A DNA stretch of 28,106 nucleotides from positions 1 to 28,106 of the forward strand of contig NZ_NVQC01000025.1 in NCBI RefSeq assembly GCF_003044035.1, read 5' to 3'. The translations under genes and the position numbers were made by a program. A model generated the notes under the pieces. That model was not told the DNA's origin and did not search any database. It saw only the letters and a program-made list of their open reading frames with translations. The stretch is from Candidatus Methylomirabilis limnetica. GTDB taxonomy: Bacteria > Methylomirabilota > Methylomirabilia > Methylomirabilales > Methylomirabilaceae. Positions 11,901-25,370 of this stretch are shown here, one piece after another; the first letter of the stretch is position 1; the number at the start of each line of letters is the position of its first letter.

Positions 11901-12325
11901 GCGCGCGCGGCAAGCCCCGATACGAGGCGCAACTGGAGGCCGACCGGGCGCGGCTTCGGCCGATCCTCATGACGACGCTCGCCATCATTGCTGGAATGTT
12001 GCCGGTCGCCTTAGGCAAGGGCGACGGCTCCGCCTCCAGGGCCTCACTCGCCACCGCCGTGGTCGGCGGCCAGACCCTCTGCCTCTTAATAACGCTACTG
12101 GTGACTCCGGTCGTCTACTCGTACTTCGACGATCTCCGCGGGCTTCGGATCGTCTCGTGGTTATATGAGGTTCGCCTGTGGGCATGGTTGCGGGCGAAGC
12201 CTGCTCCTGGCCTCTCCCCTCACCCCGACCCTCTCCCCAGAGAGGAGAGGGGACTCAACCATAACCTCCTCTCCCCCGTGGGGGAGAGGATAAAGGTGAG
12301 GGGGCAACGGGACGGGTCAGGGTAG
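8912..12325 (+). CDS. RND efflux transporter permease (AcrB/HAE1-like) with an atypical TM insertion and a repeat-derived C-terminal tail
   Basis: 1137-aa ORF. AcrB-like blocks include IDDAIIVLENI, the porter-domain pattern, and a second TM bundle with GVVKKNAILQVDF. The C-terminal ~40 aa are translated from hairpin repeats. Confidence 0.9.
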   Translation: MSLIEICVKRPVFATMLIVSLVVMGLASFRDLGLDVFPKVDMPTVTITTRLPGASPEEIESNITKRIEEAVNTINGIDELRSTTLEGQSQVFVTFVLERKIDEAANDVREKVGTVVSAFPHGTEAPAIEKFDPDSAPIMAIVVSGKRSAREITELADKKIKRQLETVKDIGAVTLVGDRKREIQLVVEPHRLEAYNLSIQQVKTAVQRQNVEVPGGNITWQTREQGLRTLGRIERAADWSDLIVADYKGAPVRIRDIGSALDGEEEPRTLSRLDGKSAVSLLVQKQSGTNTVAVVDRVKAKLQEIKANLPPDVEFQVVRDVSRFIKRSIAEVEEHLMLGGLLASLIVAFFIGRLVRREQVVLGALLGGLTLAFFHGDPELLRVVVLWSIAVTLVLFLFIPRLRPAFIAAISIPVSIIATFTIMRVAGFTLNNLTMLGLSLSTGIVIDDAIIVLENIFRHIEEERRLPMEAAVTGAKEIVLAVMATTLSLVVIFLPVAFMGGLVGRFWNSFGLTATFAILVSLLVAFTLTPMLSARMLKPVMSPVEPSEDLGQGHGGHRQHDQGSKATHVYAFLERNYDGLLVWCLNHRAIVLLLAGSLLLSTVLIGRQMKLDFVVDDDMSEFEVIVETPPGSSLDRSDGILRRLEADLKTIPEVEHLFTSIGVRGKDRANITDASIYVGLTHLRARTRSQQAIMQEVRQMFRAYPDLRISAQQISLISGGGFKQTPFNLVLRGPDLQQLDGYAQALIKRLTAIPGFVDVDTSQAQRRPEVQVRIDRQKASDLGIRAEDVALALRTMVGGEKVGFYREGGEQYDVRLRLKDDYRKDASAISALTVPAAANRLVKLNNVVSLNPGRAPAQIDRYAQERQITVQANLHQMVLGEATAQADAAIKAVGMSPGYSTAYLGRGKLMAEAFYNFAIAFVLSIMFIYIVLAAQFESFIHPITIMVSMFLSIPFGLVSLLAAGQTLNIYSVMGLFLLMGVVKKNAILQVDFTNVLRARGKPRYEAQLEADRARLRPILMTTLAIIAGMLPVALGKGDGSASRASLATAVVGGQTLCLLITLLVTPVVYSYFDDLRGLRIVSWLYEVRLWAWLRAKPAPGLSPHPDPLPREERGLNHNLLSPVGERIKVRGQRDGSG
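12211..12301. repeat. Two G/C hairpin repeats (CCCTCTCC..GGAGAGGG; CCTCTCCCCC-gtg-GGGGGAGAGG)
   Basis: Palindromes read directly. They lie inside the 3' end of the RND ORF and encode LSPHPDPLPREERG..LLSPVGERIKVRG. Confidence 0.75.
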
Positions 12326-12358: not shown

Positions 12359-12640
12359 ATGGAACTGACGCGGCGGCAGGAGATCATGACGATGCTCCGG
12401 GAGGGCGAGTGGACGTTGGACGAGCTGGCCATGAACTTCGTGGTGTCAAAAAAGGTGATCATCGATGACCTCGAGCATATCGCCCGCTCTGTCCCAAGGC
12501 CCTCTCGCCTCCAGATCCATCCCCCAACCTGCGAGGTGTGCGGCTATCGCTTCAAGGACCGGGCGAAGTACAACGATCCTTCCCGGTGCCCAATGTGCAA
12601 AAACGAACACCTTCGCTCCCAACGATTCCAGATCGTCTGA
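12359..12640 (+). CDS. Small transcriptional regulator: HTH domain fused to a C-terminal Zn-ribbon (COG3357-like)
   Basis: 93 aa. The N-terminal winged-helix-like segment is RRQEIMTMLREGEWTLDELA. Two CxxC pairs (CEVCG, CPMCK) form the ribbon. Confidence 0.7.
   Translation: MELTRRQEIMTMLREGEWTLDELAMNFVVSKKVIIDDLEHIARSVPRPSRLQIHPPTCEVCGYRFKDRAKYNDPSRCPMCKNEHLRSQRFQIV
12469..12583 (+). repeat. 115-bp direct repeat, copy 1 (inside the HTH/Zn-ribbon gene)
   Basis: 113 of 115 nt are identical to 23783-23897 (counted by hand). The mismatches are tac/ttc and aac/aat. Confidence 0.95.
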
Positions 12641-12709
12641 TGAGATGTACCGTAACGTCGCTTTGAATCCACTGGGGGTTCATTCCCCGCGGCTTACCAC
12701 GAGTTCGTC

Positions 12710-12768
12710 ATACCGGCGGAAGCCGGTATCCAGAGTGACCCGACTGGATTCCGTGTCAAGCACGGAAT
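12710..12768. repeat. REP-like double hairpin (ATACCGGC-ggaa-GCCGGTAT; ATTCCGTG-tcaag-CACGGAAT)
   Basis: Perfect 8-bp stems read directly, downstream of the Zn-ribbon gene. It may also act as a terminator. Confidence 0.75.
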
Positions 12769-12807
12769 GACGGGCCAGAACAGAAGACGATACCCTGCAG
12801 CTTACTG

Positions 12808-12851
12808 CGGGGTAGTTCATTCAGCCTCGCAAGAAAGTAAGACTAAGGGAG
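12808..12851 (+). ncRNA. Candidate preQ1-I riboswitch in the queF leader
   Basis: A 5-bp P1 (CGGGG 12808-12812 / CCUCG 12825-12829) encloses a 12-nt loop starting UAGU. An A-rich tail follows, then ACUAAGGGAG. ACUA can pair with the loop UAGU to form a pseudoknot, and the tail overlaps the SD 10 nt before the ATG. The tail is longer than in textbook examples. Confidence 0.35.
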
Positions 12852-12861
12852 AACAGACGTC

Positions 12862-13218
12862 ATGTCCACGCAACCGTCAAAAGAGATCGAGATCTTTCCC
12901 AACCCTGAGCCTGGGCGCGATTACGAGATCCAGATGACCTGCCCTGAGTTTACCTGCCTCTGCCCGAAGACCGGCCAGCCTGACTTCGCGATCCTGACGC
13001 TCACCTATGTTCCTGACCAGTCGTGCATCGAGTTAAAATCGTTCAAACTCTACCTCTGGTCCTTCCGGAACGAGGGCCACTTTCATGAGGCGGTCACGAA
13101 CCGGATCCTGGATGACCTCGTCAAGGCTTGCCGGCCCCGCTTCATGAAGCTGGTCGCCGACTTCTACGTCCGCGGCGGTATCCACACCATCATTACCGTC
13201 ACGCATCAGCAGTCGTAG
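12862..13218 (+). CDS. queF: NADPH-dependent 7-cyano-7-deazaguanine (preQ0) reductase, type I
   Basis: 118 aa with the catalytic-Cys motif [14 protein letters not shown], the [11 protein letters not shown] block and the EAVTNRI helix, as in YkvM-type QueF. Confidence 0.9.
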
Positions 13219-13220
13219 GG

Positions 13221-13563
13221 ACGCGCTACGGTGGACGGGTAGGGGAGGATCTCTTCTATCCGGGCTACTTCAAGTATTCTAATCGCGACAACCTGGTGAC
13301 CGCCACCGGGCCGGGAGGCCGCCGATGATTGGAGGGCATACCGGGGCGGCTTACGGCTTGACTGGGAGCCTTCCACCCGCGATACGGTGACAGTTCAGGG
13401 CGACCTCTATAAGGGCGATTTCGGCCAGACGCTCACGCTTCCCTCCCTCCTCCCCCCCTTCTCGGGCAGCTCCGACAGCCTGGGCGATTTTGCGGGGGGC
13501 AACCTCCTCACACGCTTCAGGCATAGGGCGGCTGATCGCAGGGAGACCACCCTCCAGTTTTAC
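13221..13563 (+). pseudogene. Internal fragment of a TonB-dependent-receptor-like beta-barrel gene, frameshifted
   Basis: Two frames read RYGGRVGEDLFYPGYFKYSNRDNLV..ATG and DDWRAYRGGLRLDWEPSTRDTVTVQGDLYKG...GGNLLTRFRHR...TLQFY. This resembles a TBDR barrel segment from memory. A frameshift lies near 13298-13325. The fragment has no start or plug domain and stops at the IR-like sequence. Confidence 0.4.
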
Positions 13564-13597
13564 GGGTCTTCTCCCGAGTGAGTGGGTAAAAATCAGG
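13564..13597 (+). repeat. ISL3-like terminal sequence, copy 1 (GGGTCTTCTCCCGAGTGAGTGGGTAAAAATCAGG)
   Basis: About 26 of 33 nt match 23697-23730 in the same orientation. A GGCTCTTC-type start is what I recall for ISL3-family IRs. An ISL3-like transposase fragment lies 480 bp downstream. Confidence 0.45.
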
Positions 13598-13628
13598 TAA
13601 TAAATGGCACATGGCAGGAAAGTGTGGG

Positions 13629-14051
13629 TTACAGTTTGGACCTCCTCCCCCCTTGAGGGGGAGGATTGAGGTGGGGGGTCAAGACTTGTCGGATCTCCTC
13701 CACGACCGAAACGGGATGGCGTAACAGATCGTGGTCCCAAAACCGAACGACACGATATCCATGGCTCTGCAACCAGCCGGTCCGTTCCGTATCGTAGTTG
13801 AGCTGTGCCGCATGCTGCCCTCCATCCACTTCAACGATCAGTTTGCGTTCCAAACAGGCGAAATCCACAATGTACGGGCCCATCGGGTGCTGCCGCCGAA
13901 AACGATACCCGTCAATCTGCCGTAGCCGGATGCGACGCCACAGAGCCCTTTCGGCATCCGGAGGATCCTTCCTGAGAACGCGAGCCCTTCTGCTCACCCC
14001 CCCATCCTCACCTTCCCCCTCGCAGGGGGGAAGGGACACATCCACCAACAC
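13629..14051 (-). CDS. DUF559 (Vsr-like) endonuclease domain protein
   Basis: RARVLRKDPPDAERALWRRIR...GYRFRRQHPMGPYIVDFACLERKLIVEVDGGQH...RTGWLQSHGYRVVRFW is the DUF559 signature. Both ORF ends run into G/C hairpin repeats (13641-13678 and 13995-14039), so the true start may be internal. Confidence 0.8.
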   Translation of the reverse strand: MLVDVSLPPCEGEGEDGGVSRRARVLRKDPPDAERALWRRIRLRQIDGYRFRRQHPMGPYIVDFACLERKLIVEVDGGQHAAQLNYDTERTGWLQSHGYRVVRFWDHDLLRHPVSVVEEIRQVLTPHLNPPPQGGRRSKL

Positions 14052-14074
14052 CTTCCTGCCAAGAGCCTAATGAA

Positions 14075-14260
14075 TTGTCGAAGGTGGGCTCCGGACAAGG
14101 GTTTACTGGGTTTGAGGTGATGCGAAAAAGTGGTCTGTTCTACGAATACGAAAAAGGAGAAGGCTTGACCTTTTACACGAAGCGGTTTGCCTTCTTTGTG
14201 GGACGACGCTGCCGGGCCTCCACCCTGCAGGACGTGGCCAACAAGCTGCATCTGAACTGA
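14075..14260 (+). pseudogene. ISL3-family transposase N-terminal fragment
   Basis: TKRFAFFVGRRCRASTLQDVANKLHLN resembles the HTH_Tnp_ISL3 segment (TKRF..fv...c...t..dVA..l.l.W). It is truncated at both ends. Confidence 0.45.
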
Positions 14261-14262
14261 AA

Positions 14263-14484
14263 TGTCAGGGGACGATGCGGATCATCAGTGTCATCGAGGA
14301 CCCGTCGGTGATCCGGGACCTCCTCAATCATCTGGGACTCTGGCCGGCAAGCACAAGACCACCACCAAAAGCTCACGCCACACCAATCTGGGAATACGCC
14401 GCTTGCGATCTCCAACTTCAAACACACGCTGAGACTATCTACGGCGACCCCGACTACACCTGGGATGAAGACAGACAGCCATAA
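14263..14484 (+). pseudogene. IS91-family (Y2 rolling-circle) transposase C-terminal fragment, copy A
   Basis: KCQGTMRIISVIEDPSVIRDLLNHLGLW..RPPP...DPDYTWDED resembles the Zn-finger tail and extreme C-terminus of IS91-family transposases, as I recall them. It abuts the ISL3 fragment with no intervening start. Confidence 0.55.
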
Positions 14485-14596
14485 CGCATTGTGAAACAAA
14501 GGCGTGCAGGAGAGGTCTGTCTGTATTGTGCTCACAAATGCCCTCTTGCCGGGTGACTCGACCACAAGATGAGCTGATTTCTCAAAAGAGCGGTCC
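14290..14596 (+). repeat. ~305-bp direct repeat, copy A (IS91-like 3' coding end plus ~110 nt downstream)
   Basis: Aligns colinearly with 16256-16560, at roughly four-fifths identity by eye. Confidence 0.85.
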
Positions 14597-14657
14597 CCGA
14601 TCCACCTTCCTTACCCAACCGCATCGCCAGCCCCTGTTTTTCGATGCACAATATCTG

Positions 14658-14686
14658 TTGACAAGCAACAACAGCCTTCCTATACT
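14658..14686 (+). promoter_or_regulatory. Sigma70-type promoter, module copy A: TTGACA-17 nt-TATACT
   Basis: Hexamers and spacer were counted directly. It lies 144 nt upstream of the GGDEF-PilZ ATG and is part of the triplicated module 14618-14745. Confidence 0.6.
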
Positions 14687-14829
14687 TCCAGCCATCGAAA
14701 GCAATGCCTTATCAAAATAAATAAATCAAACAAACAAACAAACAATGTTACGCTCACCAGGCTGCCCGCTTGATAGGGGCGACCGCCACCCCTTTCGTTA
14801 AACGCGCACCCGCAGGAAGCTTAGTCTTT

Positions 14830-16014
14830 ATGGAGAATTTAACCGAGTTCGAAGCTTTCAAAGATCGCGTCATCTCGCTAGTGTCAGAGGACTCGCTCAA
14901 CCGGAAATTCCTCACTGAGCAGATCAACGAAATTTTCCTCCAGCGCGTCGATGGCTGCCTCTATTCCCGGCTTCTGGCGCTCTTCGTCCACTTGGACTTT
15001 GATGAAGCCGAGGCCCAGCGCCACTGGGTGAGCATACTCGATAATTACAACTACTTTCATGAGGTACTGCGGCGCAAGGTGGGGCTGCGGGTGGCGATGT
15101 TTGACTACTTTCTCAATAGTAATCAGCTCCTCCAGAACCCGATCCTCGTCGAAATCCATCTGTTCCAGCAGGCCACCTTTATGGCCATGCAAGACCACCT
15201 CACCAATCTCTTCAACCGCCGCTATTTCGATATCGCCCTGGAAAAGGAAATCAAGCGCTCCGCGCGCTGGCAAACAGATTTCTCGTTACTGATGATCGAC
15301 CTGGATAATTTCAAACAGGTCAACGACGTGCACGGCCACCTCTTCGGGGATAAGGTGCTCAAGGATCTCGCCGCAGTGCTGAAACAGCTCAGCCGGGAAG
15401 AAGATACCGTCTGCCGCTACGGGGGCGAAGAGTTTATCGTCTTGCTGCCGGGCACCACCGCGAGCGGCGCGCTTCACTACGGGGAGCGGGTGCGGGCCGC
15501 CTTGGCAGAAAACGATTTTTTGTATCGCCATCACATCACCTTCAGTGGCGGGATCGCCACCTTTCCCGCCGATGGCAGCGAGGCGGTGACCTTGCTCAAG
15601 GGTGCCGATGTCTCGCTTTATCAAGCCAAGTTTTCCGGAAAAGATTGCATCGTCAAAAGTTCCCAGGAACGTCGCCATGGCAAACGCCATCCCCAAACCT
15701 GGCAGATCAGCTACCAGCCGCTGGAGCAGACCTTCACCACCCCTGAGATTCACGAGGCTTACGCTCAGGACGTCTCACTCGGCGGCGTCAGATTTGAAAT
15801 GGCGCAAGTGTTTTCCCTGGACGACAAATTATTGCTCCACATCAAGCTCCCCGAGCTTCAGGGCGTCATCGTTGTCGGGAAGGTCGCCTGGATCCGAAAA
15901 CTGGAGTCGAACCGCTACGAATATGGCCTGCAGTTTCACGATCTGAAAGCCGAGCAGGTGGAAAATTTTAAAAAGGCTTTACCTGGAGGCGAAGCTTCCA
16001 TTCCAGATTTTTGA
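14830..16014 (+). CDS. Diguanylate cyclase (GGDEF) with intact I-site, fused to a C-terminal PilZ domain
   Basis: GGEEF at 15421-15435, preceded by RxxD (REED, from 15394). The guanine-specifying D is present (HLFGDKVL). The PilZ motifs RRHGKR (15670-15687) and DVSLGG (15769-15786) are both present. The start is taken at MENLTEF; the track start 14770 is a TTG. Confidence 0.9.
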   Translation: MENLTEFEAFKDRVISLVSEDSLNRKFLTEQINEIFLQRVDGCLYSRLLALFVHLDFDEAEAQRHWVSILDNYNYFHEVLRRKVGLRVAMFDYFLNSNQLLQNPILVEIHLFQQATFMAMQDHLTNLFNRRYFDIALEKEIKRSARWQTDFSLLMIDLDNFKQVNDVHGHLFGDKVLKDLAAVLKQLSREEDTVCRYGGEEFIVLLPGTTASGALHYGERVRAALAENDFLYRHHITFSGGIATFPADGSEAVTLLKGADVSLYQAKFSGKDCIVKSSQERRHGKRHPQTWQISYQPLEQTFTTPEIHEAYAQDVSLGGVRFEMAQVFSLDDKLLLHIKLPELQGVIVVGKVAWIRKLESNRYEYGLQFHDLKAEQVENFKKALPGGEASIPDF

Positions 16015-16129
16015 GCTACATGCGCGGCCAACAACCGCAGTGCGTCCTCTGCTTTTTTCTAACCACTTTTCTCATTGTATATTTAATTAACTGATGCGTT
16101 CATTTCGTTAAGGGTCGATACCCCGCGGC

Positions 16130-16449
16130 TTGCCGCGTCCGTGTGATCTCGATATGGCAGAAGGTGTACTCCTGGCTTCGTATGCAACTCATCCGTCTGC
16201 CCTGAAGGTATGCGGCCAGCGCCGTTGGATACCCATCAGCTTGCCGCGGGGAGGCGTCATCAAGGACCCGTCGGTGATCCGGGTTCTCCTCACTCCTCTG
16301 GGACTTTGGCTGGCAAGCGTAAGACCGCCACCACACGCTCACGCCCCGCCATCCGGGACTACACCGCTGTCGATCGAAAGCTTCACACGCATGTGGAGAC
16401 TCTCTACGGCGACCCCGACTACACCCGGGATGAAGACATGCAGTCGTGA
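16130..16449 (+). pseudogene. IS91-family transposase C-terminal fragment, copy B (disrupted)
   Basis: ..VCGQRRW..VIKDPSVIRVLLTPLGLWLASVRPPP is followed, in a shifted frame, by ETLYGDPDYTRDEDMQS. It is homologous to copy A at the nucleotide level. Confidence 0.5.
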
Positions 16450-16560
16450 CGCATCGTGAAACACAGGCGTGCAGGAGAGGCCTGTCTGCATGGCGCTCAT
16501 AAATGCCCTCTTACCGGGTGATTAGACCACAAGATGAGCTTATTACTTAAAAGAGCAGTC
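16256..16560 (+). repeat. ~305-bp direct repeat, copy B
   Basis: Colinear with 14290-14596. Confidence 0.85.
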
Positions 16561-16633
16561 ATATACATCTATCTTAGCAAAAATCATCGTAATATACTGC
16601 GATTAGATGTATAATATCATTGCACAATGATTA

Positions 16634-16662
16634 CTGATAGAAACAAACAGCCTTACTATACC
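16634..16662 (+). promoter_or_regulatory. Module copy B, promoter-like: CTGATA-17 nt-TATACC
   Basis: This is a degenerate version of copies A and C at the homologous position. A perfect TATAAT also occurs at 16610-16615. Confidence 0.35.
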
Positions 16663-16790
16663 CTAGCCAGCAAATGTAATACATTATCAATACACCACAA
16701 TCATAAAAATCAAATCAAAGGTCAGGTTAGCTTGAGAATGTCCGCTCAATAGGGGTAGAATAAAGACCCAGTTGAGAGGAGGCAAGAGGC

Positions 16791-17215
16791 ATGGTTGAAG
16801 GCAAGAAGCGAATGACGGCAACGCGGAAGCTGGAGGTATACATAGAGATGTGCTGGAAGAACGCCAACGCGGGAGAGATCCTGCGGCGGTATTGGCTCCA
16901 CCTGAACGACCTCCGGCGGATCGAGATGTTGGTGGAGCTGGCAGCCCTTACGGCGCTCAATGGGAGCCGCCGAAGGCCTGGGGCAGATCCCCAGGCGGAC
17001 AGAGAATATGCCTAACTCGCGGCAGAGCTGGCGCAAACGGAGAATACTCTGGCCGAGTTGACCGTGGAGTACACCCTGCGCAAAAAAAGCGAGCGCTCGG
17101 GTTGGAAGGGTTCCTCGATGGCATCTACCTCCATAGCGGAGTGCGGGAGGCGCTGATCATGGCGACCAAGGACGCCATCGCGGGCGGGTTGACCGAGCGG
17201 GCGGGTAGAGGTTAT
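16791..17215 (+). pseudogene. IS3-family OrfA-like (HTH) transposase remnant with internal stop and frameshift
   Basis: GEILRRYWLHLNDLRRIEMLVELAALTAL then stop, then AELAQTENTLAELTVEYTLRKK and GVREALIMATKDAIAGGLTERAG in other frames. It is GC-rich and ends exactly where the AT-rich DNA begins. Confidence 0.5.
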
Positions 17216-17239
17216 GCCTCTGAGCTTTTACAGGAGGAA

Positions 17240-19153
17240 ATGAAATTGACCGTCGATAACCCTCTATATAATAGTAGGGTAATAGATACCTATATAAAGT
17301 TTGTTAAACAAAAATATGATTACGTAAATATCAGTGAATTATTAAGCTACGCAAAGATTGAGTCATATCAGGTTATAGACGAAGGCCACTGGTTTACTCA
17401 GAAACAGATAGACCTGTTTTATGAAAGGCTGGAAAAGCTAACTAAAAATAAAAACATAGCAAGGGAAGCTGGAAGATACGCGGCATCATCCGAGTCCCTG
17501 GGAGTAATGAGACAGTATATGTTGGGGTTTGTTGGCCCTGCAAAAGCTTATCAACTAATAGGAAAATATGCCCCTAAATTGGCCAAATCGTCAATTTATG
17601 AATCAAAAATAAAAACCTCTAATGGAATTGAAATTACTGTCACGCCGCTAAAAGGCGTCCACGAAAAACAATTTCAATGTGATAACAGAATCGGGTATTT
17701 TGAAGCCATTGCCTTAGCATTTAACTATAGTCTCCCTGAAATCAGACATCCTGAATGTGTCTTCAAGGGTGGGAAAGTTTGTCATTATATTATTTCATGG
17801 AAACAATCGTATTTCTCCTTCTGTAAAAAAATCAGAAATTATGCTGCCCTGTTTTTTCTCGCCGTAAGTCTCGGTGCTTCTTTCATGTATTCTTTGTCTA
17901 CGCTGATAACAATTGTACCATTTTCTGTTTTTGTTGTTCTTTCATTAACTCTCTATGCTGCAATTATCGAAAAAAAGGAATTAAATACAGCCATAGACAA
18001 CCTCAAGGTTTCGTCCGATGAGCTCATGGAACAGGTTGACGTAAATTATAACAATTCCCTAATGCTAAGTGAAATTGCACTATCTCTTAGCAAACAAATG
18101 GACATCGATATCATTTTATCTAATGCTATGAAAGTCTTGGAGGTCCGCCTTTGTTATGATCGTGGCGTGATTCTTTTAACAAATGAAGACAAGTCCCTGT
18201 TATTATTCCGCGCAGGTTTTGGTTATACTCCCGAGCAATTAAACGTTTTGAAGAACACTCAGTTTCACTTAAATATGACTGAGTCAAAGGGGCTGTTTGT
18301 TGTCTCTTTTCGTGAAAAGAAACCATTTTTAATAAATGATTTACAAGAGATAGAGGCCCACCTTTCATCTCACAGCCTGGAATTTGCAAAAAAAATGGGG
18401 GCATTATCCTTTATCTGTTGTCCAATAATCTACGAAGGAGAGTCCCTGGGAATTCTTGCCGTAGACAATACAAAGACAAAAAAACCGTTGGTCCAGAGTG
18501 ATATTAGTTTGCTTATGGGCGTTGCGCCTGAAATTGGGATGAGCATTCATAACTGCTTACTCCTGGAAGCCAAAGAACGACAATTTGAATCGATAATACA
18601 CGTCTTAGCGGCTAGCATTGATGCTCGAGACCCACTGACAGCAGGTCATTCCGAAAAGGTTACAGAATACGCCATGGGAATATGTCACGAATTAGACATA
18701 CCGAAGGAAGACCGAGAAATCATTCGTATTGCCTCATCACTGCATGATTATGGCAAGATAGGTATTAAAGATTCTATCTTAATGAAACCAGGCAAACTGG
18801 ATCCAGAAGAGCGTAAGGCAATAGAAACTCATGCGGACAAAACCAAGAAAATATTGGAACGGGTACACTTTGAAGGCGTTTATGGGGAGATTCCTAATAT
18901 TGCGGGATCACACCATGAAAAAATTGATGGCAGTGGTTACCCAAAGGGACAGAAGGGAGAAGATATTCCTCTGGGTGCTAGGATAATTGGTGTAGCTGAC
19001 TTTTTCGAAGCTATAACAGCAAAACGTCATTACAGGGACCCGATGCCCATCGATGTAGCGTTTCAACTACTCAATGAGGAGGTAGGAAAAAGTTATGACA
19101 AAAATATTGTTGATGCTTTTATTAGATATTATAACGGGAGGTTAAAGACTTAA
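17240..19153 (+). CDS. Membrane-anchored sensor protein: unknown N-terminal domain, 2 TM helices, GAF, HD-GYP c-di-GMP phosphodiesterase
   Basis: HD..HDYGKIGI..HHEKIDGSGYPKG motifs. The GAF-like block is SEIALSL...GILAVDN. The TM pair is YAALFFLAVSLGASF / IVPFSVFVVLSLTLYAAII. The start is taken at the ATG after AGGAGG; TTG 17246 is an alternative. The track ORF start 16850 fuses the IS3 remnant in frame. Confidence 0.85.
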   Translation: MKLTVDNPLYNSRVIDTYIKFVKQKYDYVNISELLSYAKIESYQVIDEGHWFTQKQIDLFYERLEKLTKNKNIAREAGRYAASSESLGVMRQYMLGFVGPAKAYQLIGKYAPKLAKSSIYESKIKTSNGIEITVTPLKGVHEKQFQCDNRIGYFEAIALAFNYSLPEIRHPECVFKGGKVCHYIISWKQSYFSFCKKIRNYAALFFLAVSLGASFMYSLSTLITIVPFSVFVVLSLTLYAAIIEKKELNTAIDNLKVSSDELMEQVDVNYNNSLMLSEIALSLSKQMDIDIILSNAMKVLEVRLCYDRGVILLTNEDKSLLLFRAGFGYTPEQLNVLKNTQFHLNMTESKGLFVVSFREKKPFLINDLQEIEAHLSSHSLEFAKKMGALSFICCPIIYEGESLGILAVDNTKTKKPLVQSDISLLMGVAPEIGMSIHNCLLLEAKERQFESIIHVLAASIDARDPLTAGHSEKVTEYAMGICHELDIPKEDREIIRIASSLHDYGKIGIKDSILMKPGKLDPEERKAIETHADKTKKILERVHFEGVYGEIPNIAGSHHEKIDGSGYPKGQKGEDIPLGARIIGVADFFEAITAKRHYRDPMPIDVAFQLLNEEVGKSYDKNIVDAFIRYYNGRLKT

Positions 19154-19175
19154 TCAAATAGTTGACAGATTTAAA

Positions 19176-19976
19176 TCAAGCAACAGGCTTACGTCCCCTG
19201 CAACAAATTACTGGCGTGTAAGTAAATCTTCTCGGATCGATAAAAAATCTATTAAATTCCCCTAAAAACTCTTCGTATCCTCCATCATATTCTTCAAAAT
19301 TGAAATTTACCTTCTTTGAGATAACTTCAAACTTCTTTGTCCAGTTGTAGGCATCAATGTCGTTTAATTCCCCAAATATCAGGTGATGAGCGGTAACATC
19401 CATGTTTATATCCTGATAGCCAAGATCATACAGGAAAGAATAAAGTTTTCTCCCTACATACGGATCGAAGTCTGCATTTTCCTCTAAATATTTTATAACG
19501 GCAAAAATGGTTCTTTCCAGCCTTGGTGAAATGCCAAAATGGCTTAAACAATTATGGTCTAAATCAACCAGGCACAAAATACCACCTGGCTTTATAAGCT
19601 TAGTTACATTTTTAACGATGTCAAAACTGCTAGAAAGGTAATACTCTAAAGCAAAACGCATCCAGACAAAGTCAAACATCTCCTCACCGCCAAGGGACTT
19701 TCGTATATCTCTACGCCTAAATGTTATCCCTTTATCGTTATAGCGTTCTTTAGCATATTCAATTCTCTTTTCTGAACCATCGAATCCGATTGCCACTCCA
19801 CCAGGTTGAACTAATTTATGTAATATAGAAGTTACTTTTCCTGAACCACAGCACATATCAGCAACGTGCATACCTGGCTTAATACCAGCCCAAAGAGCTT
19901 GCTGCTCAACAACTCTACTATTTGTTTTAATATCCAGACGGAAAGCCTCTTCTTCATTTTCCATTAAGTATTCCAT
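19176..19976 (-). CDS. Class I SAM-dependent methyltransferase
   Basis: Motif I VADMCCGSGKV, an acidic loop GFDGSE, and motif IV-like LIKPGGILCLVD. The substrate cannot be inferred. Confidence 0.8.
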   Translation of the reverse strand: MEYLMENEEEAFRLDIKTNSRVVEQQALWAGIKPGMHVADMCCGSGKVTSILHKLVQPGGVAIGFDGSEKRIEYAKERYNDKGITFRRRDIRKSLGGEEMFDFVWMRFALEYYLSSSFDIVKNVTKLIKPGGILCLVDLDHNCLSHFGISPRLERTIFAVIKYLEENADFDPYVGRKLYSFLYDLGYQDINMDVTAHHLIFGELNDIDAYNWTKKFEVISKKVNFNFEEYDGGYEEFLGEFNRFFIDPRRFTYTPVICCRGRKPVA

Positions 19977-20109
19977 AACCCCCCATCCTTTATGCTCTCA
20001 GGTGGTTTAGATCGATACCGGAAATATTTTTGTGATTATATCACTACTTACCATCCCCTGCTTTTCGATGTACAATATCTATACAAAATAATACCATGTA
20101 AAATAACTA

Positions 20110-20138
20110 TTGACAACTAAAAACAGCCTTACTACACT
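20110..20138 (+). promoter_or_regulatory. Sigma70-type promoter, module copy C: TTGACA-17 nt-TACACT
   Basis: Counted directly. It lies ~60 nt upstream of the ATG at 20199 and is part of the conserved module 20046-20190. Confidence 0.55.
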
Positions 20139-20198
20139 TAAAGCCATCAAAAGCAATGCCTTATCAAATAAAACAATCAACCCTGATCAGAGGTGGCA

Positions 20199-22382
20199 AT
20201 GGATAAACTCCAAAGAATTGCTAAGCTTTCCTACTATACCGACCCAGATAAGGGACTGGAAGAAAGAAAGAAGATCTCCAGAAAACGCCTAAGAAACACC
20301 CTGAACCATATTAATTTTCAAACTGGCACAATACTTATAAATTTCAAACACCTAAAGTATGATACTGTCCTATCTCTTCAAGCCAATCCACAGCCATGTC
20401 TTGAAAATAGTTTGGAATGTTTGTGGATTGAACCAGCAGGACTAAAACAGAAATTGAGTTCTTACAAATTTCTAAATTTTCTACTTACAGATGATCTAGC
20501 GCTTATTCTTGTTGAAGCTGCCTTAAAGGAAATAAGTGAGGAAGGAATTAGCTTCAGCCTCCCTGAAATTTGTTACGAGCTTAGCTATCGCAAGGTAAGA
20601 AGGCATTTATGCAAGGGTATTCAGGTTGATCTCATTCAAAACAGTGTAATATTTTACGGAACTCTTTTGAACTTTAGCGCTGTCTCGTTCTGTATAGAAG
20701 TATCAACTGAGCCATCCCAACCATTTCATTGGGTTAATCCTGAAGATACGGTATATGTTACATTCAAAAATAAACAGGATATCCTGTATTCAGGAGAATG
20801 CAGGATAATCCGACAAACGTATGGCCAAAAAAAGAGCGTCTTTATAGTAGAACCTGTAAACGATCAGATACGCAGATTTAAGACAAAAGAGTTTCGAAGC
20901 TCTCGACACAAATTATCACCCTCACCAAATATTAACTTTATACATCCTTTTACTCAGAAACTTATCAACATGGAAGTTGAAGATCTGACAGGTTCTGGTT
21001 TTTCTGTTGAGGAAGACATAGACAATGCTGTGCTTTTGGTCGGAATGATTATCCCGGAACTGTACATAGAAATAGGCTATGATTTTAAAATCAGATGCAA
21101 GTCCCAGGTTGTTAATAGAAATGTTCATACAGCCAACGATTGCAAAACTCTCGCGAAATGTGGAATGACCGTTTTAGATATGGACATCCAAGAACAAGTA
21201 AGACTTTCGAGTTATTTACAGCAGGCGGAAAATAAAAAGGCCTTTGTTTGCAACAGGGTGGACATAGATGCGCTGTGGAAGTTCTTTTTCGAGACAGGCT
21301 TTATCTATCCTAAAAAATATGCTCTTATGTCCGCTGACAAGGAAAAGTTTAAAGCAACTTATGAGAAGCTTTATGTCGAAAATCCCCATATAGCCAGACA
21401 TTTCGTATGCCAAGATAAAGGTATAATTCAAGCGCATGTATCGATAATCCGTTTTTATGAAGAGACATGGCTACTTCACAACCATGCCTCCCTCAGATCA
21501 GGACATGGCAATACCGGACTTGTTGTGATGAGGCAGGTTGAACGTTATATAAACGATTTTCACCGTCTCTATTCAGCACACATGAATTTTGTCGGTTGTT
21601 ATTTCAGACCAGATAATAAGTTTCCTATGCGTGTGTTTGGAGGGTGTGCCAGAGAAATCAATAATCCAAAGGCATGTTCCGTTGATTCCTTTGTCTATTT
21701 CTGTTTTCCAAGAGCTGGCACACAACCTGATCTACCGGAAGCATTGACATTAACTAAAACCCAGCCCGAAGACCTTTTAGAGCTGGAAACTTTTTATGAA
21801 TATGAATCCGGAGGTCTGATGCTTCAAGCCCTGGATTTAACGCCGGAAATGATTGATAATGATAATCTCAGTAAAGAATTTAACAAGCTTGGTTTCAAAA
21901 GGGAAAGGATTCTTTTTTCTTTGAAGAAAAATGATGTTCTAAGGGCAGTTATAGCGGTAAATGTCTCTGATATCGGCTTGAACCTGTCTAACCTGACGAA
22001 TTGCTTCCACGTTATTATCCTGGACGCTAAAGATCTCCCCGTTAACATAATTTATATCTGCCTCTCCATGCTATCAAAATATTATGAGCAGCAGGATGAA
22101 ATTCCTGTTTTATTGTATCCCGTTAGCTATGCGCAAAGCCACTCCGTAGCCTATGAAAAAATACATACCCTATGGATGTTGAATACACAATATGGTGATC
22201 AATACTTCAAATATATGGAGAATTTATTTCACCATAGGCATGATGATGAAGAGGCTCAATGTTCTATAGCTTACCCCGATATGGACGATACGAGAAGGCG
22301 GAGTGAGAAGCATGGGAGGTCGTTGCGCATTATCACTAAGGATGGGATTGACTCCCAACATGAAAACGAAGACGGACGCTAA
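20199..22382 (+). CDS. Large cytoplasmic protein: tandem degenerate PilZ-like domains plus an unrecognised ~390-aa C-terminal region
   Basis: Three motif pairs are visible: RKVRR(H) then NFSAVS 23 aa later (20589-20687); RSSRH then DLTGSG 26 aa later (20892-20999); and an N-terminal RKRLR with EISEEG. No TM helices or catalytic motifs were recognised. GAGG lies 5 nt before ATG 20199; the track start is GTG 20193. Confidence 0.5.
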   Translation: MDKLQRIAKLSYYTDPDKGLEERKKISRKRLRNTLNHINFQTGTILINFKHLKYDTVLSLQANPQPCLENSLECLWIEPAGLKQKLSSYKFLNFLLTDDLALILVEAALKEISEEGISFSLPEICYELSYRKVRRHLCKGIQVDLIQNSVIFYGTLLNFSAVSFCIEVSTEPSQPFHWVNPEDTVYVTFKNKQDILYSGECRIIRQTYGQKKSVFIVEPVNDQIRRFKTKEFRSSRHKLSPSPNINFIHPFTQKLINMEVEDLTGSGFSVEEDIDNAVLLVGMIIPELYIEIGYDFKIRCKSQVVNRNVHTANDCKTLAKCGMTVLDMDIQEQVRLSSYLQQAENKKAFVCNRVDIDALWKFFFETGFIYPKKYALMSADKEKFKATYEKLYVENPHIARHFVCQDKGIIQAHVSIIRFYEETWLLHNHASLRSGHGNTGLVVMRQVERYINDFHRLYSAHMNFVGCYFRPDNKFPMRVFGGCAREINNPKACSVDSFVYFCFPRAGTQPDLPEALTLTKTQPEDLLELETFYEYESGGLMLQALDLTPEMIDNDNLSKEFNKLGFKRERILFSLKKNDVLRAVIAVNVSDIGLNLSNLTNCFHVIILDAKDLPVNIIYICLSMLSKYYEQQDEIPVLLYPVSYAQSHSVAYEKIHTLWMLNTQYGDQYFKYMENLFHHRHDDEEAQCSIAYPDMDDTRRRSEKHGRSLRIITKDGIDSQHENEDGR

Positions 22383-22398
22383 GAGAGGGCGTTTTACT

Positions 22399-23697
22399 AT
22401 GAATCAAAAAGTATTATGGAGAGGAATAGCTGTTTATGTACTTATATTCTTTGTCTTTTGTACTACCTCAAATGCTTATGGCTCTGGCTTTGCAATCTTT
22501 ACACAGGGTGCATCGGCTTTAGGTCAGGCAGATGCTGTAATTGCGCACGCAGATGACCCCTCGGCGATTTTCTTCAATCCCGCATTGATTAATAAACTCG
22601 AAGGAACACAAATAGAACTAGGAACAACCCTGCTCTTCCCTTCGCAGGAATTTAAAAGTGCTGCAACGGGAAATTCATTTCGAACAGAAAGTCAGGTGTT
22701 TTACCCACCCACAGTTTTTGTTACCCATAAGTTCAATGATAAGATCAGCGCGGGTTTGGGTGTCTTTAGTCCTTTCGGACTAGGGATTAACTGGGGTAAT
22801 AGCTGGGAAGGAAGATACATAGCAACCGACTCAGAAATGATAACTTTTAATATCAATCCCGTAGTTTCATACAAGGTAACACCTGATTTTACATTTGCTG
22901 CAGGGGTGGATTTCCTTCTCCTTGACACAACGTTAAAAAAGAGTCTAAACCTGTCGGGCTTGGCGAGCGCTGTCCCTAGTCTTGGCCTTCCTGCCGGCCT
23001 TCCGGACGGTAGACAAAAATTTAAGGGTGATGGACATGGTGTTGGATATAATTTTGGAATTCTGTATGACGTCAATAAAGACATTTCGTTCGGCGCCTCA
23101 TACAGAAGCGAAATCAAAGTGGACATTGATGGTGATTCCACCTTTACTCTTCCGAGCCCCTCACTCGGAGCTCTATTTCCAAATACTTCCGGCAATTCAC
23201 ATATTACGCTTCCACGAGTAGTCCAGGCTGGCGTCGCTTACAAAGGTTTTAATCGACTGACGCTAGAAACTGGTATGAGATGGGAAGGCTGGTCATCATT
23301 CAAAGAATTAAGGATCAACCTCGATAAACCTGTTTTAGGCAGTACCACGTCCATCACAGAAAAAAACTGGCATGATACGTACTCTGCAAATCTTGGGGTA
23401 AAATATCAACTGAATGACACGGTTGCATTGCTTGCCGGATACTTATATGGAGGAAATCCAGTACCTGATAAGACATTTGACCCTATTGTCCCAGATGCGA
23501 CTACACACCTTTTCACCGTTGGAACAAATGTAAAATATAAGAACATGAGAATTGACCTATCATATGGTTATCAATTGCTGGAGGGGAGGAGTAAAAACAA
23601 TACGGTTGCTGATCCATTGAATCCTTTCAACAACGCCAACGGAAGGTATAATACAGATATTCATCTGTTCGGTATCAGTCTAACGTATAAAATATAG
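22399..23697 (+). CDS. Outer-membrane transport protein, OmpP1/FadL/TodX family
   Basis: Signal peptide [15 protein letters not shown], then [37 protein letters not shown] (the FadL-family N-terminal hatch signature) and an alternating beta-strand pattern. The start is taken at MNQKVLW, with an RBS-like AAGAGAGGG (22381-22389) 9 nt upstream. It begins 17 nt after the previous stop. Confidence 0.85.
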
Positions 23698-23730
23698 GCT
23701 CTTCTCCCAAACGAGTGGGTAGATTTTCAG
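23697..23730 (+). repeat. ISL3-like terminal sequence, copy 2 (GGCTCTTCTCCCAAACGAGTGGGTAGATTTTCAG)
   Basis: It starts on the last base of the OMP TAG stop and marks the AT-rich/GC-rich boundary. It is homologous to 13564-13597 in the same orientation. Confidence 0.45.
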
Positions 23731-24704
23731 TCTTTTTAGATCTCCGGGAGCATGCACGTAAGGATTTTCAGGCGCAGGTACTCCTCGAGCATATCGCCCG
23801 CTCTGTCCCAAGGCCCTCTCGCCTCCAGATCCATCCCCCAACCTGCGAGGTGTGCGGCTATCGCTTCAAGGACCGGGCGAAGTTCAATGATCCTTCCTAC
23901 GAGGTCTGCCGCCGCCTGAAACAGGAGCCGCCGACCCGCTTGATACCGATCGTCTTGCTCACGGCTCTAGCGGCGGAAGAAGCCCGGATCCGAGGGATCG
24001 AGGCGGGGGCTGATGACTTCATCACAAAGCCGTTCAGTCGGGCGGAGTTGAAGGCCCGCGTCCGCTCGCTGCTCAGGCTCAAGAAGTTTACCGACGAGTT
24101 GGAGCACGCCGAGGCCATGTTGCTCGCGCTGGGCCGAACCGTAGAGGCAAAGGACCCGTACACCCAGGGACACTGCGAGCGACTGGCGGCCTACTCGGTC
24201 GCCCTTGGACGGAAGCTTGGCCTGCCACCGGAGGAGCTGACAGCCCTGGACAGAGGCGGGACCCTGCACGATCTGGGGAAGATTGGGATCCCGGATGCGA
24301 TTCTGTTGAAACCCAGCGGCCTCAGCGAGGTGGAGTGGGTGATCATGCGCGAGCATACGGTGATCGGCGAGCGAATCTGCCAGTCGCTACGATCATTACA
24401 GCGAGTTCTGCCGATCATCCGCCATCACCATGAGCGATGGGACGGGAGCGGTTACCCTGATGGCCTTGCGGGCGAGGCGATCCCTCTCACGGCGAGAATC
24501 CTGCAGGTCGCTAACATCTTCGATGCGCTGAGGTCCGCGCGACCATACAAGCCTGCCTGGTCGCTACAAACCGCGTGCGATACCCTGCGGGATGAGGTGG
24601 CACGCGGCTGGCGTGATCCAGGCGTGGCTGAGCCATTCATCGAGCTGGTCGAGCTGGGCGGGCTGTCGGAGGCCCCGGAGCCTGCCGGTGGAGCAGGGGT
24701 ATAA
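23715..24704 (+). CDS. Chimeric, N-terminally decapitated response regulator-HD-GYP (RpfG-like) protein
   Basis: Residues after the repeat junction start mid-receiver ([24 protein letters not shown]), so the phospho-acceptor Asp region is missing. The HD-GYP domain is intact ([22 protein letters not shown]). The 5' ~60 codons derive from the IR-like sequence plus the Zn-ribbon gene duplicate. Confidence 0.65.
23783..23897 (+). repeat. 115-bp direct repeat, copy 2
   Basis: 113 of 115 nt are identical to 12469-12583. Confidence 0.95.
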
Positions 24705-24827
24705 TAGCTATCCGGGACTGCAGTACTCGCAGGCGCATTTTCCAGGCCAACCCGGACAACGTGCGGTTGACATTCACTGCGACGGTGGATTATTCGAATG
24801 AATATCTAGTCAAGGCGGGGCAGCGGG

Positions 24828-25370
24828 ATGGGGCTGGACGGTGCGGCGAGTCTCAAGCTGCCTCGGGAGGAGGGCGTGGTGACGGCCGCCCTCGAACAGT
24901 TTCGGGTTCAGGCGGACGCGAAGGGTGTGGCGCTTGCGCTGCGGCTGGAACAGGCGCCGGACAGCCTGGTGGCTGACCCGCTCCGCTTTAAGCAGATTCT
25001 GCACAACCTCTTAGGCAACGCCGTGAAATTCACCCCAGCGGGCGGTTCCATTACTGTCACTGCGAAGATAGTTTCGCGTTCACAACCCGAAACCCTAGAC
25101 CCTCAACCCTATACCCTCGACCCCGGTGATTTCGTAGAAATTACCGTCTCGGATACCGGCATCGGGATTAAGGCTGAGGATCTGGGTCGGCTCTTCCAAG
25201 AGTTTACACGGTTAGACAGTTCCTTCGCAAAGCCGCAGCAGGGGACTGGCCTGGGTCTTGCCATGGCCAAACGCCTGGTCGATCTCCACGGAGGGTCCGT
25301 GACCGCCACCTCTCCCGGAGAAGGTCAGGGAAGCACCTTCACTGTCACCTTGCCGCTGCGGCCGTCGTGA
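24828..25370 (+). pseudogene. Histidine kinase C-terminal fragment (HATPase_c only; H-box/DHp missing)
   Basis: N-box HNLLGNAVKFT, G1 DTGIGI and G2 GTGLGLAMAK are present. The frame is closed by a TAG at 24807, and no phospho-His region lies upstream. A 42-nt heptamer repeat sits in frame at 25082-25123. Confidence 0.7.

Follow-up and report, generated by a model that had tools for sequence, protein, structure and literature searches.

A genuine 115-bp direct repeat in Candidatus Methylomirabilis limnetica as a probable scar of genome reshuffling

Background

Amplifications in Salmonella and E. coli involve tandem duplication at short junctions without homology, and a later remodelling deletion leaves a novel join. 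In complex class 1 integrons, partial duplications of the 3'-CS flank ISCR1 regions. [quoted passage not shown] In SPDIR, as outlined in bioRxiv 10.1101/2023.11.22.568220, ectopic single strands anneal at microhomologies and are integrated during replication. Homology-facilitated illegitimate recombination (HFIR), for which a definition is given in PMC3240628, has been proposed for T6SS and Rhs arrays (PMC5361080).

Candidatus Methylomirabilis limnetica is a lake methane-oxidising bacterium. The window analysed here, which is the whole stretch of 28,106 bp, contains two direct repeats of 115 nt, R1 and R2, identical at 113 of 115 positions just as the original prediction had it. They start 11,314 bp apart, 11,199 bp lying between them, and their edges are sharp on both sides, the flanks giving no alignment. 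Both mismatches (12571, A/T; 12575, C/T) are placed at most 13 nt from the right end, which leaves a perfect run of 102 nt. No second repeat of comparable length and similarity was found within the 28-kb window, and a match of this kind in 28 kb cannot be a product of chance. The pair is genuine and is read here as an ordinary trace of genome reshuffling, not as the attachment site of a mobile element. The features of the window that are needed for the argument are as follows (coordinates, strand, description).

12359-12640, +, intact gene of a PF0610-like regulator with HTH and Zn ribbon, 93 aa (Pfam)
12469-12583, +, R1, the presumed source copy, codons 38-75 of this 93-codon gene
12862-13218, +, queF (Pfam QueF, 3.7e-35), conserved neighbour of the PF0610-like gene
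13213-13563, +, internal fragment of a TonB-dependent receptor gene (TonBDR), 349 bp, abutting queF, a collinear deletion remnant
13629-14051, -, DUF559 gene, Vsr-like endonuclease fold (Pfam DUF559, 1.9e-39)
14075-14595, +, putative decayed IS remnants (ISL3-like HTH piece, IS91-like C-terminal tail)
14770-19153, +, c-di-GMP genes by Pfam: GGDEF-PilZ (14770-16014) and GAF-HD-GYP (16850-19153)
17000-23750, low-GC block by composition (36-43% against about 60% GC), with GAF-HD-GYP, a methyltransferase (19176-19976, -), a 729-aa protein (20193-22382) and FadL (22399-23697)
23698-23782, +, 85-bp spacer between the FadL stop codon and R2
23715-24704, +, chimeric ORF, 329 aa (RefSeq WP_239993213.1)
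23783-23897, +, R2, which repeats PF0610 codons 38-75 as an orphan at an ectopic site and keeps the orientation and reading frame of R1
23897-24891, +, native part of the REC-HD-GYP gene, which runs collinear with the allele that close strains have intact
24828-25370, +, HATPase_c-only remnant (Pfam), 180 aa, of a 562-aa hybrid histidine kinase
24880-24891, +, point at which 1,336 bp have been deleted, at a 12-bp direct repeat with imperfect copies (position 1554 of locus L015 joins to 2890)
25399-25436, +, 38-bp piece of the ancestral REC126/Zn_ribbon_8 intergenic stretch (92-94% identity to L030 and L032)
25465-27113, -, the toxin-antitoxin pairs PIN-MazE and PIN-PhD, an insertion ahead of Zn_ribbon_8
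27200-27428, +, region of the Zn_ribbon_8 gene (27264-27428), from which the gene order is again the conserved one

Results and Discussion

R1 was said to lie inside an intact HTH/Zn-ribbon gene, and this was borne out, the 93-aa ORF scoring above both PF0610-like Pfam cut-offs (PF21476, 58 bits against 33; PF23470, 31.3 bits against 26). Its product, named by NCBI 'transcriptional regulator [Ca. M. limnetica]', has the N-terminal winged helix and the C-terminal rubredoxin-like ribbon of the class, with the CxxC pairs CEVC and CPMC, and belongs to a family of 93-94 aa with 34 members in a 90% cluster. R1 spans the end of the HTH domain, the linker and the first CxxC of the Zn ribbon, and R2 carries this first pair only. 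The PF0610-QueF pair is kept in M. oxyfera and in three other Methylomirabilis lineages. Syntenic loci had been proposed as the way to recognise the ancestral copy, and since the PF0610-like gene is conserved with queF across species, R1 is that copy.

In R2 the 115 nt are fused in frame to codon 62 of a REC-HD-GYP gene and replace positions 1-57 of the REC profile. The predicted loss of the 5' half of the receiver domain in an in-frame chimera is thus correct, and the translation is exactly the one that had been given: the Response_reg match covers positions 58-111 only of a 111-position profile and the HD-GYP domain is full. From its N-terminus, the chimeric ORF is made up of 23 aa from the spacer, 38 aa of PF0610, REC alpha3-to-alpha5 and then HD-GYP. 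The native fragment is 96.3% identical to the alleles of close strains (L013-L016) over 995 bp and 99.2% identical over 23897-24372. Because the 330-aa orthologues and the near-identical L013-L016 allele have a full REC domain, and homology to the intact gene begins exactly at the last base of R2 (23897), where the microhomology of the R2/'REC junction amounts to 1 nt (C), R2 is the derived copy.

Alignment with the 330-aa orthologues shows that receiver beta1-beta3 is replaced, which sets the chimeric ORF apart from RpfG-like REC proteins, and the residues equivalent to D10, D11 and D54 are gone, so that its product cannot be phosphorylated. The HD-GYP part matches HD_5 (1.8e-38) and has the HD and HHExxDGxxGYP motifs in the translation. 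The peptide encoded by R2 is identical to a natural PF0610 allele (P0141, F71) found in another strain, and R2 may therefore stem from the gene copy of another strain or from an older one. Dating by the divergence of R1 and R2 was rejected, as species and alleles vary at both of the differing sites.

The original prediction had also allowed for a mis-join in the assembly. Such an artefact could be a chimera produced by a k-mer that two places have in common, or could combine the sequences of two organisms. The source is a metagenome-assembled genome and the perfect repeat of 102 nt exceeds common k-mers, both of which would favour such an artefact. Nevertheless, the junction from FadL through the 85 bp and R2 to 'REC is identical in four other assemblies (L001, L011, L012 and the divergent L010), on contigs from ERZ4201063 (SPAdes), ERZ27249638 (MEGAHIT k119), ERZ27287891 (MEGAHIT k141) and Logan SRR6684602, which carry both junctions. 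L010 is a mosaic strain of 96% identity and a separate haplotype, with 104 differences in 2.75 kb and the junction unchanged. Moreover, a wrong resolution of the graph at the repeat would leave the R/'REC junction standing, the two bases specific to R2 sit 9 and 13 nt from that junction, and the flanks on both sides are Methylomirabilis DNA. A mis-join is rejected on this evidence.

The ancestral order, as read from relatives, is AcrB-PF0610-QueF-TonB receptor-DUF4154-HK-REC126-(REC-HD-GYP)-...-Zn_ribbon_8. The part from PF0610 to REC126 is found in L030/L031, L032 and L025, all on the + strand, and L014 has HK-REC126-REC-HD-GYP on the + strand (92.5% identity to L032). The contigs of the L014-type strain are at most 4.3 kb long and PF0610 was not seen on one of them together with the intact REC-HD-GYP, and therefore we infer the collinearity of these two genes from the synteny of other species. 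With PF0610 and REC-HD-GYP collinear in the ancestor, the orientation and order at the R2/'REC junction fit a simple deletion of about 6.5 kb (5,578 + 900 bp). The window has lost about 5 kb of the ancestral order and codons 1-61 of REC-HD-GYP, and the lost stretch is replaced by DUF559, the IS remnants and the low-GC block with the c-di-GMP genes and FadL. Compared with M. oxyfera, L032 and L028, the window has new DNA at 13564-25398 and 25444-27199; R1 is placed about 1 kb outside it and R2 within it, so the idea that the repeats bracket the island as a unit does not hold.

As predicted, queF and the c-di-GMP genes lie between the copies, all of them recognised by Pfam. The TonBDR fragment has 82-87% nucleotide identity to internal parts of genes for a 693-aa Plug/TonB receptor in L025, L030 and L032. 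The DUF559 gene, also present in strain L003, comes first among the genes on the DNA that is new by comparison with M. oxyfera. Of the predicted decayed IS fragments, which recur at 16256-16560 (83-85% identity), the piece at 14275-14484 resembles the C-terminal tail of a transposase of the IS91 family (Y2_Tnp/Zn_Tnp_IS91; 44.7% identity across 38 aa), and the piece at 14075-14260 gave a sub-threshold HTH_Tnp_ISL3 match (E 7e-4); searches against NCBIfam and Pfam gave no match above threshold, and the remnants stay putative. The low-GC block is arranged otherwise elsewhere in Methylomirabilis, being inverted or interrupted in L017, L019 and L020, where the similarity reaches no further than the FadL stop codon. 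A scan of metagenomes with FadL yielded four useful loci, in all of which homology ends at the FadL stop codon, and a scan of the genome collection yielded only two mis-binned Methylomirabilis-like contigs. GC rises from about 38% to about 60% across about 23750-23790, at the left end of R2, so that the position of R2 is that of the GC step separating the low-GC block from native DNA. When the 85-bp spacer was compared by blastn-short with the window and with each of the 33 loci, it gave only chance 11-12-mers, apart from the four contigs with the same junction, which do contain it. No match was found in an Rfam scan of the whole window at gathering thresholds, nor any tRNA or tmRNA in a scan of the window.

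To the right of the chimera, the 1,336-bp deletion took a CheB' fragment and the REC-PAS-HisKA part of the hybrid kinase; the 12-bp imperfect repeat at its junction reads TGACGATCGCCC / TGACGGCCGCCC. The HATPase_c remnant has 98% nucleotide identity to the 3' end of the kinase gene of L014-L016. This deletion and the TonBDR fragment are further collinear deletion remnants in the locus. The Zn_ribbon_8 region is 83-92% identical to L028, L030 and L032, and in L028 it is found about 475 bp past queF. The stretch from queF to Zn_ribbon_8 is a rearrangement hot spot in Methylomirabilis, where low-GC c-di-GMP genes, toxin-antitoxin pairs and fragments of signalling genes are shuffled by illegitimate and homologous recombination.

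For the origin of the pair we tentatively favour illegitimate recombination that is not site-specific, R2 being a real and fairly recent ectopic piece of PF0610 placed exactly at the breakpoint where the low-GC accessory block was joined to the beheaded native REC-HD-GYP gene. We infer the order and number of events as follows. In an ancestor with AcrB-PF0610-QueF-TonBDR-DUF4154-HK-REC126-REC-HD-GYP on a single strand, the accessory block would have settled after the TonBDR fragment with a partial second copy of native DNA, from PF0610 position 12469 on, to its right; tandem duplication or a one-sided (homology-facilitated) illegitimate join could have produced that copy. All but 115 bp of it would then have been lost in a collinear deletion, about 6.5 kb long, between position 12583 in PF0610 and codon 62 of REC-HD-GYP. 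The duplication part of an earlier suggestion, that the repeats are att-like scars of integration or duplication, comes close to this path. Against it, at least two illegitimate events are needed, the R2/REC junction has only 1 nt of visible microhomology and the spacer matches nothing outside the contigs with the same junction; the duplication intermediate (FadL, 85 bp and R running into the PF0610 3' end) was not found, the PF0610-like proteins among the listed cluster representatives being all full-length. A single event would suffice, and would be most parsimonious, if a stalled or broken 3' end, with a deletion from the FadL end to REC-HD-GYP codon 62 under way, had switched to PF0610 11 kb behind, copied 115 nt and switched forward again, by long-distance template switching (MMBIR/FoSTeS) or as an oversized case of SPDIR. 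Such a templated filler agrees with a short patch that is sharp at both edges and has its source nearby and with the minimal microhomology at the right junction, and a second filler could account for the spacer, in which the GC of the latter half is native-like. However, it would then be by coincidence that the fusion is in frame and that orientation and order agree with the ancestral run from PF0610 to REC-HD-GYP, the two differences between R1 and R2 would need later mutation or a template allele that has since been replaced, and 115 nt is long for an SPDIR patch. We regard the filler as possible but rather unlikely.

A circle carrying R, queF and the accessory block, the product of illegitimate excision or of rolling-circle read-through like that of IS91/ISCR elements, could also have entered a chromosome with an existing PF0610::'REC-HD-GYP deletion fusion by a single crossover at R, leaving an insert flanked by direct copies of R, much as ISCR1 regions are flanked by partial 3'-CS duplications. 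The direct repeats do surround a segment with IS91-like remnants, an identity of 102 nt suffices for RecA and the population is highly recombinogenic (mosaic patches of about 8% between otherwise near-identical strains). Nevertheless this very unlikely course needs three events (deletion fusion, circle and homologous recombination), neither an intact transposase of the IS91 family nor a recognisable oriIS/terIS was found, the decayed tails of about 70 aa fall below family thresholds, and a search with the chimeric N-terminus found no PF0610::HD-GYP fusion or deletion product among the listed cluster representatives. IS91/ISCR capture as such was rejected, there being no Y2 HUH transposase with oriIS and only tail remnants with no Pfam or NCBIfam match. 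Near-identical direct repeats around 11.2 kb that includes foreign-looking low-GC DNA resemble the attL and attR of an integrative element, but site-specific integration is extremely improbable: no integrase, recombinase or tRNA was found within or adjoining the segment (Pfam on all sizeable ORFs of 12.3-27.5 kb and precomputed Pfam of the called genes), R comes from the inside of a gene instead of its 3' end, the DNA to the right of R1 begins with ancestral neighbours (queF and the TonBDR fragment) and so not with cargo, the repeats do not mark where the new DNA starts and stops, and next to R2 stands an unrelated gene that is truncated, in place of the displaced end of PF0610. A transposon target-site duplication was rejected as well, 2-14 bp being expected against the 115 bp found, with no adjoining inverted repeats and decayed IS tails only; so was the TR/VR pair of a diversity-generating retroelement, as the scanned ORFs have no RT domain, the differences (A/T and C/T) are not confined to adenine, and R2 is at the 5' and not the 3' end of its ORF. 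With its identical run of 102 nt, the pair could in principle, although rarely, undergo a RecA deletion.

The chimeric ORF is most likely a relic, despite its intact HD-GYP half. An adaptive domain swap that left a maintained and expressed HD-GYP phosphodiesterase, freed of phosphorylation control and served by read-through from the FadL operon, concerns function and would fit any origin, and we consider it unlikely. The ORF is open and in frame over both junctions with its HD and HHExxDGxxGYP motifs intact, starts 18 nt past the FadL stop codon, is retained in two haplotypes and adjoins other c-di-GMP genes. However, its GTG start at 23715 is supplied by the spacer and has no Shine-Dalgarno sequence upstream, the stretch 23690-23790 has no promoter-like site past the FadL stop and no terminator-like site (RNA fold z-score 0.41), and other gene callers prefer an internal start codon, which gives 254 aa. 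Moreover, half a (beta-alpha)5 receiver fold with half a Zn ribbon is unlikely to fold, the AlphaFold2 model (12-row alignment) is uninformative with a mean pLDDT of 45.9, the downstream partner kinase is truncated too, and the codon differences from the intact allele, 13 nonsynonymous and 10 synonymous, suggest relaxed constraint as far as such small numbers go. More doubtful still is a young functional gene, in which one template switch would have grafted 38 regulator codons in frame to give a phosphorylation-independent HD-GYP phosphodiesterase, together with its co-transcription with the FadL operon of the horizontally acquired c-di-GMP module and its upkeep in wild populations.

A conspicuous repeat of Ca. 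M. limnetica is thus settled as genuine and not an assembly error, and it reveals no new kind of genetic element. The protein WP_239993213.1, annotated as 'HD domain-containing phosphohydrolase', is a chimera without the phospho-acceptor half. These results are of use for the annotation of uncultured methane oxidisers and for the study of strain-level variation.

Comparison with known systems

Like RpfG-type REC-HD-GYP proteins, the chimera has intact HD-GYP motifs, and its C-terminal 268 aa are 92% identical to the 330-aa Methylomirabilis proteins. Unrelated sequence however stands in place of receiver beta1-beta3, to which the acidic pocket and the phospho-acceptor Asp belong, so that the product cannot act as a phosphorylation-controlled regulator.

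With MMBIR/FoSTeS and with the SPDIR of Acinetobacter baylyi, R2 shares a short ectopic patch of nearby origin at the junction of a deletion, where microhomology is slight or absent. It differs from SPDIR in being 115 nt long and in accompanying a replacement of several kb, and such a mechanism would be putative here. The duplication and remodelling of Salmonella and E. coli finds its likeness in the other microhomology deletions of the Methylomirabilis locus, although a full second copy would be hypothetical here, as would any selection scenario.

The 'orphaned 3' regions' of Rhs/CDI and the T6SS immunity arrays of V. cholerae differ from R2 in that R2 is an internal slice of 115 bp and not a 3' end with a partner gene, in that there is no repeated array here and the reading frame of R2 runs on into an unrelated gene, and in that natural competence is not established for Methylomirabilis. 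An HFIR product would have one end joined in homology and the other at a microhomology with no similarity beyond it; the right junction of R2 has 1 nt of microhomology, and another strain carries an allele to which the R2 peptide is identical. As in the Rhs/CDI and T6SS arrays, new DNA lies beside a conserved anchor, and one illegitimate join would have left a fragment of a resident gene orphaned downstream of the newcomer.

The repeat pair and its host gene

The segments 12469-12583 (R1) and 23783-23897 (R2) are direct copies of 115 nt that MAFFT and a repeat finder agree are identical at 113 positions, which bears out the near-perfect 115-bp direct repeat of the original prediction. Their starts are separated by 11,314 bp, and the similarity does not extend into the flanks, left or right. 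Both mismatches (12571 A/T and 12575 C/T) are close to the right end, and 102 identical bases remain uninterrupted. A repeat search of the window found no other repeat equally long and equally similar.

R1 makes up codons 38-75 of a 93-codon ORF (12359-12640, PTL35338.1) that clears the curated thresholds of the two PF0610-like models in Pfam, the winged-helix N-domain and the Zn beta-ribbon; the gene had rightly been read as an intact HTH/Zn-ribbon gene. A natural allele of this regulator, P0141, encodes the exact R2 peptide, F71 included, and thus the 2-nt divergence between R1 and R2 is unusable for dating. This identity of peptides is compatible with R2 having come from the PF0610-like gene of another strain, or from an older copy. 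Between the PF0610-like gene and queF the window also holds a 154-bp insert with short hairpins (12667-12820), which is missing in strain L003 and species L028.

Several smaller repeats were observed elsewhere in the window. The aminotransferase and phosphorylase genes are separated by a MITE-like insert of 163 bp (4487-4649) whose 34-nt terminal inverted repeats are 88% complementary and which is missing from the same site in comparison locus L025; related copies occur at 6571-6609 and in other Methylomirabilis contigs (L019, 7971-8062; L032, 51-172). The heptamer AACCTTG is repeated 10.4 times at 8830-8902, within an insert of ~250 bp between the MFP and AcrB genes, a gap of only about 4 bp in L025. 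REP-like G/C-rich hairpin repeats are found at gene ends (6627-6671, 12208-12252 and 13990-14034), and the repeat at 12208-12300 is translated as a C-terminal extension of AcrB (1137 aa vs 1100 aa in relatives).

The chimeric ORF

R2 lies in the ORF 23715-24704 (WP_239993213.1), whose earlier translation was exactly reproduced. Of the 111 positions in the receiver profile this ORF covers only 58-111, ahead of an HD-GYP domain that is complete, so R2 does stand in place of the 5' half of a receiver domain. The 8,000 homologues retrieved are REC-HD-GYP proteins of 330 aa from Candidatus Methylomirabilis; the best show 92% identity yet cover only 81% of the query. Alignment with them shows other sequence in place of receiver beta1 to beta3, the stretch that carries the DD pocket and the phospho-acceptor Asp. 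R2 is read in the same frame as in the PF0610-like gene and is also in frame with the receiver remnant.

The chimera is most likely a relic, since it joins half a receiver fold to half a Zn ribbon, no Shine-Dalgarno sequence is visible ahead of its start, gene callers disagree on that start (329 aa or 254 aa), it departs from the intact allele at 13 nonsynonymous and 10 synonymous codons, its partner kinase is truncated and its AlphaFold model is uninformative. Function is possible because the HD-GYP motifs are intact and the ORF starts 18 nt past the FadL stop; nevertheless, against those half folds, the uncertain start and the codon differences, it seems improbable that the protein would be maintained as a phosphorylation-independent phosphodiesterase.

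The junction in other assemblies

The junction running from FadL through the 85-bp spacer (23698-23782) and R2 to the receiver remnant is shared by four other contigs.

Contigs sharing the junction
ERZ4201063 (SPAdes): 100% identical to the window
ERZ27287891 (MEGAHIT k141): 2 differences in 8.4 kb
SRR6684602 (Logan): 100% identical to the window
ERZ27249638 (MEGAHIT k119): separate haplotype, 104 differences in 2.75 kb

The differences of ERZ27249638 cluster in two patches of ~8% (22139-22995 and 24373-24722), and across the spacer, R2 and both junctions this contig is identical to the window. The join of R2 to the receiver remnant is 9-13 nt away from the private bases of R2, and de Bruijn mis-resolution at the repeat could swap left flanks, not create this join. 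We therefore reject the assembly mis-join that had been offered as one origin, though the accessions may not all be independent samples. The same ~8% patches separate otherwise near-identical strains (the window, ERZ27249638 and close strain L015), which indicates that short segments are frequently imported by homologous recombination in this population.

Gene order and content

In M. oxyfera and L025 the order is MFP-AcrB-PF0610-QueF-TonB-dependent receptor-DUF4154-CHASE8 kinase-REC126 (a receiver gene), all on one strand. Contig L032 has the same order and single strand from the TonB-dependent receptor on, and both it and M. oxyfera carry Zn_ribbon_8 and then AhpC directly after REC126. In a further lineage (L028) Zn_ribbon_8 lies within ~475 bp of PF0610-QueF. 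As the PF0610-QueF pair is conserved among Methylomirabilis lineages, R1 is the ancestral copy.

Strains very near the window (L013-L016) have an intact REC-HD-GYP gene, 99.2% identical over 23897-24372, in the context partial kinase-REC126-645 bp-REC-HD-GYP-partial CheB-hybrid kinase-PIN-MazE; their kinase-REC126 part is 92.5% identical to L032. The REC-HD-GYP gene occurs at two loci in the genus (L004-L009 and L013-L016; ~90-93% nucleotide identity), one after bioD-rlpA and the other after REC126, the shared stretch taking in ~26 bp before the gene and 44 bp after it. The presence of one stretch at two different loci shows that the gene itself has been copied or relocated as a cassette.

Ancestral pieces retained and the low-GC block of the window
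AcrB-PF0610-QueF: retained ancestral genes
13213-13563: internal TonB-receptor fragment, 349 bp, retained
25399-25436: intergenic piece, 38 bp, retained
27200-27428: Zn_ribbon_8, retained
17000-23750: low-GC block (36-43% vs ~60% GC) with GAF-HD-GYP, a methyltransferase, a 729-aa protein and FadL

The window has lost the remaining receptor gene, DUF4154, the kinase, REC126 and REC-HD-GYP codons 1-61, and has in their place DUF559, weakly supported ISL3-/IS91-like remnants, GGDEF-PilZ and the low-GC block, whose 729-aa protein has no Pfam or NCBIfam match. Other Methylomirabilis lineages have this block too, at 84-93% identity but inverted or interrupted (L017, L019 and L020), and homology to it ends at the FadL stop codon in every lineage compared. 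Two Methylomirabilis-like contigs, 86-92% identical to the window, are filed under other organisms, L017 (NZ_FZMP01000132.1) as 'Ca. Methanoperedens nitroreducens Mnv1' and L018 (JAGWZR010000172.1) in a 'Planctomycetota' MAG, and are probably binning contaminants.

A segment of ~300 bp is duplicated (14290-14595 and 16256-16560, 83-85% identity) and encodes a tail similar to the C-terminal end of transposases of the IS91 family. The sequence of strain L003 parts from that of the window at 14339, within the first copy. A promoter-like element of ~80 bp (TTGACA-N17-TATACT and the conserved leader AGCCATCAAAAGCAATGCCTTATCAA), with no Rfam match, precedes GGDEF-PilZ (14644-14724), GAF-HD-GYP (16621-16700) and the 729-aa/FadL operon (20096-20176), and these three copies suggest that the genes are regulated in common.

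Origin of the second copy

At the left end of R2, over about 23750-23790, the GC content climbs from ~38% to ~60%, and the 85-bp spacer has no match elsewhere in the window or in the comparison loci other than the four contigs that share the junction. On the right, the final base of R2 already belongs to the homology with the intact allele, a 1-nt microhomology. Downstream, 1,336 bp present in L015 have been deleted at an imperfect direct repeat of 12 bp, and the hybrid kinase is left as a HATPase_c stub. The locus is therefore marked by deletions at microhomologies, with pieces from inside genes left behind.

The interpretation of the original prediction is, overall, partly supported. An att-like scar of site-specific integration is not supported: neither an integrase nor a tRNA gene was found, the repeat is an internal gene segment and the copies do not fall at the borders of the new DNA. 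For a target-site duplication the repeat is too long, and terminal inverted repeats are missing; a DGR TR/VR pair is discarded in the lack of a reverse transcriptase and of adenine-specific differences, and an ISCR-like capture in the lack of a transposase or oriIS, with decayed tails only. RecA-mediated deletion between R1 and R2 is mechanistically possible given minimal homology lengths, and would result in the loss of queF and a fusion between PF0610 and HD-GYP; a non-exhaustive search found no such product.

We consider it very probable that illegitimate recombination left the junction as a genuine scar. R2 and the receiver remnant lie in the orientation and order of PF0610 and REC-HD-GYP in the ancestral arrangement, where these are ~6.5 kb apart (5,578 + 900 bp), so their join is the expected product of a plain collinear deletion. 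Tentatively, and at somewhat less than even chances for the path as a whole, we favour a history in which the accessory block came to sit behind the receptor fragment, leaving on its right a partial second native copy beginning at 12469, which a tandem duplication would have produced, or else incoming DNA joined illegitimately on one side, as in homology-facilitated illegitimate recombination; the redundant copy would then have been removed by a deletion of ~6.5 kb. The main rival is a templated filler made in one step, by long-distance template switching or as an oversized SPDIR patch (bioRxiv 10.1101/2023.11.22.568220). It is more parsimonious, but turns the collinearity into coincidence, and we regard it as rather unlikely. 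A protein search with the chimeric N-terminus, among cluster representatives, did not find the intermediate that would decide between filler and duplication-deletion.

Homology-facilitated illegitimate recombination is defined in PMC3240628, and PMC5361080 invokes it to explain orphan gene fragments. Events of the kind seen here are well known; the present case is new but ordinary.
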